Source: an uncultured Alphaproteobacteria bacterium
GTDB lineage: Bacteria; Pseudomonadota; Alphaproteobacteria; Rhizobiales; Methyloligellaceae
Length of the DNA: 64,000 nucleotides
Assembly (NCBI GenBank): GCA_963732205.1
Contig: CAVSYE010000001.1
Coordinates: 264,128 to 328,127 of the forward strand
Direction of reading: 5' to 3'
Of this stretch, positions 62,758 through 64,000 are shown piece by piece. The position numbers and the translations under genes are program-made. The notes below the pieces were generated by a model. It was not told the origin of the DNA. It saw nothing but the letters and a program-made list of their open reading frames with translations, and did no database searches. Numbering within the stretch: position 1 is the stretch's first letter; each line of letters starts with the position of its first letter.

Positions 62758-63093
62758 TCAATCACCCGTGCCAGGGTTTGGCGATAACAGGTTGATCTTG
62801 TCGGGCTTGCCCTCCCACTCCTTGGCATCTGGCGGCGGCTCACGTTTTACGGTGATGTTGGGCCAGATCTGAGCATATTTGGTATTGATCTCCAGCCACT
62901 TCTCGAGTCCGGGCTCGGTGTCCGGCTTGATTGCATCAACCGGGCATTCCGGCTCGCAAACACCGCAATCGATGCATTCGTCCGGGTGGATGACGAGCAT
63001 GTTCTCGCCTTCGTAGAAGCAGTCGACGGGACATACCTCGACACAGTCCATGTACTTACATTTGATGCAGCTCTCATTGACGATGTACGTCAC
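62758..63093 (-). CDS. fdxA: 7Fe-type ferredoxin
   Basis: [18 protein letters not shown]; [12 protein letters not shown]; GGAGG RBS. Confidence 0.95.
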
Positions 63094-63115
63094 GCGAGCC
63101 TCCTTCCAGGAAGAC

Positions 63116-63216
63116 TGGCCGTCGACCTCCGGATCATCGAATGGTGCACCCTATTAACGATTTCTAGAAGGATGGCCGTCGACCTCCGGATCATCGAATG
63201 GTGCACCCCATTAACG
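63116..63216. repeat. 44-bp tandem duplication, period 57
   Basis: TGGCCGTCGACCTCCGGATCATCGAATGGTGCACCCYATTAACG at 63116 and 63173. Confidence 0.9.
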
Positions 63217-63411
63217 CTCAATAGCCTCGGTGTGAGGTCGAGGTGGGTGACGCGTGTCACCGCGCCGATTCGATCGCCGCACATACATGATCGTGGCTCC
63301 GGGCTGGTCAGCCTTGGCCTTTAAGGCCGCGATGAGCGCGTCTTCGGCGTCAACGACAATTCGGTCGGCTTTTCCTTTCACTCTCAGTCCGACAGTGAAT
63401 TGCCACGACAT
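63211..63411 (-). CDS. Small hypothetical protein
   Basis: 66 aa; AGGAAGG upstream. Confidence 0.5.
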   Translation of the reverse strand: MSWQFTVGLRVKGKADRIVVDAEDALIAALKAKADQPGATIMYVRRSNRRGDTRHPPRPHTEAIER

Positions 63412-63810
63412 TTCTGGCCTTCCTTGAATCTACATTACGAACGAGCGCTCACCGGCATCGAACAATACCTTGCGTGCGAGCTCGATCTCTTTGCGCTTAG
63501 GGGTTGTCGCGTCACACTCAGCGCGCACCCCCAATATGCACAAAAATAGAGTGGGGCGGACGCTGGTTTAAGGGGCATCACATGCTACATGGTCCGCCCC
63601 ATGCGCGCTTCATATATCGGCATCAGTCAACAATGGCGCGCGTCCTTGACAAGTGGCCATTCAGTCCCCCCAGCACAAGTGACCTCGATCAAGGTCAAGG
63701 ACAAATCTTTAAACCTGACTGCCTTGGCCAAGCGGTGACGAACTCGGCTTAGGCTACCGCCAGCGGAGTGCCTTCCGGGCTTTTCAGAACACGAGATGTC
63801 TGCTTTTGAC

Positions 63811-64000
63811 GTTGTGGACGGCTCCTCCGCATGAGTGTCAAGGACGTGGGTGCGGTTAAGTACCCACGATTCGGAGGGGTGCGAATGAAGGTCGGATGTT
63901 TCGGCGCCTTAACTCGACTTCGGATGGACGATCACCCGGATGCCAAGGCCCGTCTTAAACACGTTGGCCACACCCCAATGGCCTTCGGGCCGTGCCGGCA
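63811..64000 (-). mobile_element. Probable non-coding end of an IS110/IS1111-family element; transposase would lie beyond the window
   Basis: GTGGACGGCTCC set 3 nt inside the junction with the half-palindrome ATGTCTGCTTTTGAC; hairpin-rich non-coding sequence follows. Confidence 0.45.

Follow-up and report, generated by a model that had tools for sequence, protein, structure and literature searches.

The last nucleotides of the window (by which we mean the whole stretch of 64,000 nucleotides analysed here) raise the question of which end of a mobile element is preserved there, and of what lies beside it. An earlier note had recognised an IS1111-type end and proposed that its recombinase would be encoded on the minus strand past position 64000 and that the following ~175 nt would form a guide (seek/bridge) RNA region. 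IS1111 elements carry sub-terminal repeats and a non-coding region downstream of tnp, the gene for the transposase, and their ends extend 7 bp on the left and 3 bp on the right (PMC11187229). From a sub-terminal repeat by itself, the left end of such an element cannot be told from the right one; the two are distinguished by the 7-nt versus 3-nt extension together with homology to an intact copy. Examined in this way, window positions 63807-63884, with the ATG at 63885, are very probably the decayed left end (LE) of an insertion sequence (IS) of the IS1111 group, i.e., of an RNA-guided member of the IS110 family with a DEDD recombinase. This explanation is built on the homology of the stub, its boundaries, its missing parts and the conserved fold of the LE, all of which are observed.

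Relatives of the element, of which there are many, were found by searching 141 genomes of the family with the transposase (Tnp) N-terminus of a second stub located on contig C4 of the same genome (see below). Within the genus, ten full-length copies of 1,379 bp share one common layout, and the copy at L013:94-1472 (1,379 bp) is used here as reference IS. An LE of 86 nt precedes a gene for a 343-aa Tnp with the Pfam domains DEDD_Tnp_IS110 and Transposase_20, which is followed by a 3′ non-coding region of 253-283 nt and by GGAGCCGTCCAC + ACA. The 86-nt leader upstream of tnp reads TGATGCT-GTGGACGGCTCC-...-GGAGGAGCC-N4-ATG, while the non-coding stretch ends with CTTGCCAA-N4-5-GGAGCCGTCCAC-ACA and is followed by the flank TGGCACTTAGCGGAC, so that sub-terminal repeats are carried at both ends. 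Elements with the same left end are also found on Bradyrhizobium plasmids, where the matched stretches are without annotation.

Window positions 63796-63877 share 80% identity with the LE of a congener's full-length IS1111-type element (E 3.5e-14; E 2.1e-12 in a second search), which exceeds chance, as the earlier assignment to an IS1111-type end with a sub-terminal repeat anticipated. In the BLAST alignment, 63807-63884 corresponds to reference positions 1-78; by eye the correspondence extends to position ~89, with no alignment beyond. The 12-mer GTGGACGGCTCC is present at 63814-63825, where the note had placed it, and is the exact sub-terminal repeat of the full-length relatives. The 7 bp beyond this repeat (TGACGTT) abut the specific target atgtcYgctNt, as they do in the relatives, and the 80% identity to the LE of full-length elements extends over ~80 nt. 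Likewise, GCTTTTGAC is found at 63802-63810 inside ATGTCTGCTTT|TGACGTT and spans the junction GCTTT|TGAC. Read on the opposite strand, the stub, GGAGGAGCCGTCCAC-AACGTCA|AAAGCAGAC, fits the LE pattern AGCATCA|ANAGCGGAC and not the right-end (RE) pattern ACA|TGGCAC. Among the points counted against this explanation are that the stub is only ~80% identical to the reference LE, and that hairpin 1 of the leader is absent, a net deletion of 6 nt at 63829/63830 relative to the consensus having removed its 5′ arm. The parts of the locus are collected in Table 1, together with elements and segments of relatives that are discussed below.

Table 1. Positions of the stub's parts, of its surroundings and of related features in congeners (plain numbers are window positions; ref, reference IS).
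Feature	Position	Strand	Basis or remark
Left half of REP-like palindrome, ATGTCTGCTTT	63796-63806		Arm GTCTGCT at 63798-63804; target up to the insertion point
7-nt terminal extension TGACGTT (family consensus TGATGCT)	63807-63813	+	Alignment to 21 relatives
Left sub-terminal inverted repeat (sTIR-L) GTGGACGGCTCC	63814-63825	+	Right ends of relatives carry the reverse complement GGAGCCGTCCAC
Rest of tnp 5′UTR, degraded	63826-63884	+	Alignment, 80% identity to reference LE
Hairpin 2 of 5′UTR, CGTGGGTGC / GTACCCACG	63845-63868	+	9-bp stem in fold
3′ arm of outer stem, including Shine-Dalgarno GGAGG (63873-63877)	63872-63880	+	Pairs with 63821-63829, inside and just past sTIR-L
ATG where the transposase start codon is expected	63885-63887	+	IS homology stops here
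Orphan sequence, outside the IS	63888-64000 (to 64081 past the window)		No detectable RNA or gene
GGCCTTCGGGCC, 4-bp palindromic stem	63980-63991		Within unconserved, unstructured orphan stretch
Mini-derivative	L051:1501-1759 (G058:C26)		ref 1-98 joined to 1217-1379
Mini-derivative	L085:13-479 (G050:C8)		ref 1-196 joined to 1109-1379
Mini-derivative	L062:463-~545 (G045:C23)		ref 1-66 joined to RE tip
Guide-like segment of relatives	~90-115 after tnp stop		Matches reverse complement of right flank
Guide-like segment of relatives	~112-145 after tnp stop		Matches left flank and the element's first bases
Guide-like segment of relatives	~183-221 after tnp stop		Matches the element's last bases and right flank

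The half palindrome at the junction, also reported previously, keeps its left arm, and its form is shared by the flanks of the relatives and by intact copies in the genome. Left flanks of the relatives end with (A)TGTCYGCTNT| and right flanks start with |TGGCAC(T)TAGCGGAC(AT), and uninterrupted palindromes GTCYGCTNN^TGGCACTTAGCGGAC exist in the genome of the window, for instance AGTCCGCTGG-TGGCACTTAGCGGACAT at C1:367569. Flanks and uninterrupted palindromes being of the same form, the element inserts into a REP-like hairpin, within its loop. The precise point of insertion is placed by the published 7 bp/3 bp rule and by comparison with the intact palindromes.

Everything beyond the leader is missing. 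No similarity to tnp is detected past the ATG at 63885 at the DNA or protein level, including by tblastn with full-length Tnp, and the frame downstream of this ATG has no Pfam match. Across the whole genome, the DEDD_Tnp_IS110 profile gives five matches and the Transposase_20 profile four, none of them near the window end (C1:328000), so that neither PF01548 nor PF02371 has a match there, and the 10 kb past the window end contain no IS110-family-like ORF. With up to one mismatch, GTGGACGGCTCC occurs in an IS-like context at only three sites of the genome (the window, C4:689409 and C4:705219), all of which are left ends. The right-end form GGAGCCGTCCAC-ACA-TGGCAC was not found in the window, in the next 10 kb or in the whole genome, and the right palindrome arm and the RE tail are absent at the stub. 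No complete copy of the stub's IS was found in its own genome, since none of the five DEDD_Tnp_IS110 matches is one. With sTIR-L present and the right repeat absent, the window therefore holds a fragment and not an element; the stub is immobile, and no guide RNA is encoded by it.

These results bear directly on the opposite reading, according to which the right end of an IS1111-type element stands here, 63826-64000 is its seek/bridge RNA region and the recombinase follows on the minus strand past 64000. We consider that this has next to no probability. Although sub-terminal repeat and half palindrome do exist, and IS1111 elements do carry a long non-coding region beside one end, the stretch is homologous to the LE and not to the RE of intact relatives, which puts it upstream of a plus-strand tnp. 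The DEDD IS110 recombinase expected past 64000 was not found in the 10 kb downstream, none of the genome-wide matches lying near the window end, and the matching inverted repeat was found nowhere in the genome; it was precisely the lack of an IS110-family transposase or of a matching inverted repeat that the earlier note had named as contradicting its proposal. The window piece is a short upstream UTR without a recombinase gene, whereas the guide-RNA region of the relatives sits after tnp, at the other end. A profile of the 3′ non-coding regions of 16 relatives has no match at the window end; elsewhere in the same genome it matches C4:6515-6750, C2:144344-144402 and C1:174916-175130.

Folding and searching for guide-like loops, as had been suggested, likewise gave no indication of a guide RNA. 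On the minus strand, the fold of the whole flagged stretch has z = -0.71, which is no excess of structure over shuffles, and guide-like matches between 63885-64081 and the junction extend over no more than 6 nt, which 687 of 1000 shuffles attain as well. Of the ~175 nt of non-coding hairpins described before, the first ~60 nt are indeed structured (z = -2.25 for the LE part), but the rest folds like shuffled sequence. The hairpin GTGGGT-N10-ACCCAC is present at 63846-63867 and is hairpin 2 of the conserved 5′UTR fold of the LE. For the minus-strand GGCC-CGAA-GGCC, GGCCTTCGGGCC does exist, but it is an unconserved 4-bp stem that nothing distinguishes from chance. The earlier interpretation is thus partly supported: the family had been recognised correctly, while the assignments of end and strand, and that of a guide RNA, were wrong.

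A guide region can, by comparison, be placed in the intact relatives. When the 3′ non-coding regions of 16 relatives were compared with the flanks and ends of each element, three guide-like segments emerged (Table 1), with matches of 7-10 nt that co-vary with the flanks of each copy. The targets seen among these 16 are TGGCAC, TGACCC, TGGTCC, CGGCCA and TGTCCA. Segments containing ..GTGCCA.. accompany TGGCAC targets and those containing ..GGGTCA.. accompany TGACCC targets, whereas TCGGACCA goes with TGGTCCGA, TTGGCCGAA with CGGCCAAT and TGATGGA with TGTCCATCA. As the segments change together with the target, the seekRNA is placed at the opposite (RE) end of the element from the one retained in the window, and the pattern follows the logic published for seekRNAs (PMC11187229). 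Judging from these sequence comparisons, this amounts to natural reprogramming within one IS1111 lineage (L012-L019 and L030-L043, with five target loops). In addition, joining of RE to LE in the relatives yields TTGCCA (-35), 17 nt and CATGAT, a combination that would constitute a plausible junction promoter.

The leader itself has a conserved predicted RNA fold. Folded individually, all 21 of 21 left ends adopt the same three-helix shape, in which an outer stem is formed between the 3′ half of the left repeat and the Shine-Dalgarno region (in some relatives also the start codon). This stem encloses hairpin 1 (GGCA..UGCC) and hairpin 2, the latter being kept in every relative with variable sequence. 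Across the aligned left ends, paired cells make up 93.6%, and compensatory changes are seen at 6 of 15 pairs, for instance from GGCUCC/GGAGCC to GCCCCC/GGGGGC; the outer stem is conserved with such changes in the relatives. None of 500 shuffles was as good, and slid controls gave 34-58%. Of this fold, hairpin 2 (63845-68) and the helix that encloses it, the outer stem (63821-29 with 63872-80), are still present in the window stub, with the z of -2.25 mentioned above. By analogy with ISPpu9, where 5′UTR structure regulates tnp, we infer that the LE fold may keep translation of tnp low.

The orphan stretch that begins behind the ATG does not resemble any part of the IS. We find it very unlikely that the stub was co-opted, either with its Shine-Dalgarno sequence and ATG driving a 75-aa ORF (63885-64109) or with the orphan stretch acting as a new small RNA. 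An open frame does begin at the relic ATG, with GGAGG 8 nt upstream, but this Shine-Dalgarno sequence is still paired in the predicted fold, and the 75-aa frame is without a paralogue (tblastn, own genome only) and without a Pfam match. With z values of +0.15 and +0.28, the 196 nt that follow the ATG are no more structured than shuffles, and they returned nothing in a six-frame tblastn search of the own genome. In 116 congeners the DNA has no homologue, the only matching part of the query being positions 205-546, a TerB-DnaJ fragment; this tally includes genome G071, flagged as unpublished, on which no claim depends. Among 400 genomes of the order, no homologue was found for a frame of 58 aa on the minus strand, nor was one found for a 63-aa frame among 5.8 billion proteins, at longer lengths, and the stretch has no match among plasmids, in Rfam or in Pfam.

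Its surroundings consist of debris. Beyond the orphan stretch, 64082-64423 is the TerB-DnaJ gene fragment and 64436-64726 corresponds to the final 291 bp of an IS3-family element that is present in multiple copies, while on the other side 63401-63772 is a 98% identical duplicate of C1:473432-473060. In the sequence that runs past the window end (L004, with positions equal to the window position minus 62000), L004:2727-3600, beyond the window, is 89% identical to C1:464821-465750. With both flanks duplicated on the same contig, this indicates a large-scale patchwork rearrangement between two IS-rich regions ~140 kb apart. The duplicated left flank was considered as an empty site and rejected, because the duplicate diverges 25 nt before the palindrome and cannot serve as one. 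No orthologous empty site was found, and no sequence downstream of the break is common to the window stub and the other stubs. In one congener (L027, G050:C1:756621-757502), a paralogue of the TerB-DnaJ fragment and a copy of the same IS are separated by ~300 bp, and one island may carry both of them. We also would like to mention that two 50-nt direct repeats, 94% identical and with a spacing of 57, are found at window positions 63110-63159 and 63167-63216, directly upstream, in minus-strand direction, of the gene for a 7Fe-type ferredoxin (62758-63093, Fer4 + DUF3470), and that these may represent a duplicated promoter or operator region.

The second stub of the genome, at C4:689416-689329, consists of the same LE followed by 87 aa of the Tnp N-terminus. 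On its own strand the locus reads ...ATGTCCGCTGATGATGCT-GTGGACGGTTCC-(5′UTR)-GGAGGAGCCAAGC-ATG, then 87 codons, a frameshift and truncation; a weak DEDD_Tnp_IS110 match (C4:689313-689059, minus strand) comes right after its 78%-identical copy of window 63796-63877. Further relics occur in this genome: a 5′-truncated tnp with the 3′ non-coding region and the right repeat GGGGGCGTCCAC at C4:5618-6756; an N-terminal fragment, behind which the non-coding-region profile matches weakly, at C1:174458-175138; a 60-nt fragment of the 3′ non-coding region at C2:144344-144402; and a third left-end stub at C4:705212-705266, adjoining a phaC-like gene.

Congeners also hold transposase-less mini-derivatives that keep both ends inside REP sequences (Table 1). 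Two of them (G058 and G050) still contain that part of the 3′ non-coding region to which the guide RNA is assigned, and the derivatives are candidate non-autonomous RNA-guided mini-elements. The occurrence of such two-ended forms in G058, G050 and G045 would speak for regarding the window stub as part of a MITE-like element, mobilisable in trans and devoid of a transposase. This is extremely unlikely, as the right repeat, the RE tail and the right palindrome arm are all absent here and no complete copy of the IS exists among the five DEDD_Tnp_IS110 matches; for want of a right end, the reading was rejected in favour of a decayed left end.

A census of this IS in the genus counts, beside the full-length copies, ~31 truncation events, 12 of which, the window stub included, end at reference positions 86-130, i.e., within the first ~45 nt of tnp, or 3% of the element. 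Alignment ends in this census are good to about ±10 nt, and related genomes are not independent, obviously shared events having been merged; stubs are borne by the relatives L049, L051, L057, L059, L060, L063, L064 and L074-L081. Candidate causes of this clustering of breakpoints are the stable LE structure, selection against a truncated transposase, or an aberrant recombinase reaction. That LE stubs are not random wreckage and arise by a directed process, be it a recombinase reaction that aborts or takes place off-site, or deletion end-points that the very stable LE hairpins determine, seems unlikely to us; if it were true, either route would leave a structured stub at palindromes.

Taken together, the history of the locus can be pictured as follows. 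In all probability, an element once inserted, in a site-specific manner, into a REP-like palindrome GTCYGCTNN^TGGCACTTAGCGGAC, at its loop, and a rearrangement later broke it where translation of the transposase would start; what kind of event made the deletion is something that we infer rather than observe. The left palindrome arm and ~80 bp (7-nt extension, 12-bp repeat and 5′UTR) survive, whereas tnp, the ~260-nt downstream non-coding region with the predicted seekRNA and, on the right, both the repeat and the palindrome arm have been lost, and the sequence past the breakpoint is unrelated debris. The stub is a dead remnant of a known type of RNA-guided IS and lacks the proposed guide RNA; for the window itself this matters little, and the analysis is useful as a correction of which end was read. 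Its relatives form a REP-targeting IS1111 lineage in which guide segments co-vary with targets, mini-derivatives devoid of the transposase occur and a left-end RNA fold is predicted to occlude the ribosome-binding site, and they provide a natural series for study.

Among characterised systems, ISEc11 (IS1111 family) has tnp followed by a 3′ non-coding region from which the seekRNA derives, while a promoter is made by joining its RE and LE (PMC11187229). This architecture is shared by the relatives, with their TTGCCA 17 nt before the junction CATGAT; the target of ISEc11 is a linear site and not a palindrome as for the relatives, and its functional parts are absent from the window. ISPpu9, an IS110-family element of Pseudomonas putida KT2440, has a 5′UTR whose secondary structure is reported to regulate tnp, a change in this structure being described as exposing the ribosome-binding site (PMC8450116, PMC12288879). 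ISPpu9 resembles the IS of the window in sitting in REP sequences and in having partial modules scattered in genomes. Its 5′UTR is 244 nt long and is opened by the antisense RNA Asr9, while the UTR in the window measures ~70 nt and has its closing stem formed by the terminal repeat itself. Finally, ISPa11 of Pseudomonas aeruginosa is a REP-targeting member of the IS1111 family for which a seekRNA was shown (Siddiquee et al., 2024; PMC11187229). ISPa11 and the lineage of the window's IS have in common the sub-terminal inverted repeats, the asymmetric extensions and the use of one position in a REP palindrome, and behind tnp, ISPa11 and the intact relatives both have a long non-coding region in which segments match the target. 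In contrast to ISPa11, the window retains a dead left end only, its parent being an IS of another bacterial group, known from sequence, and with a palindrome of its own, GTCYGCT..AGCGGAC.
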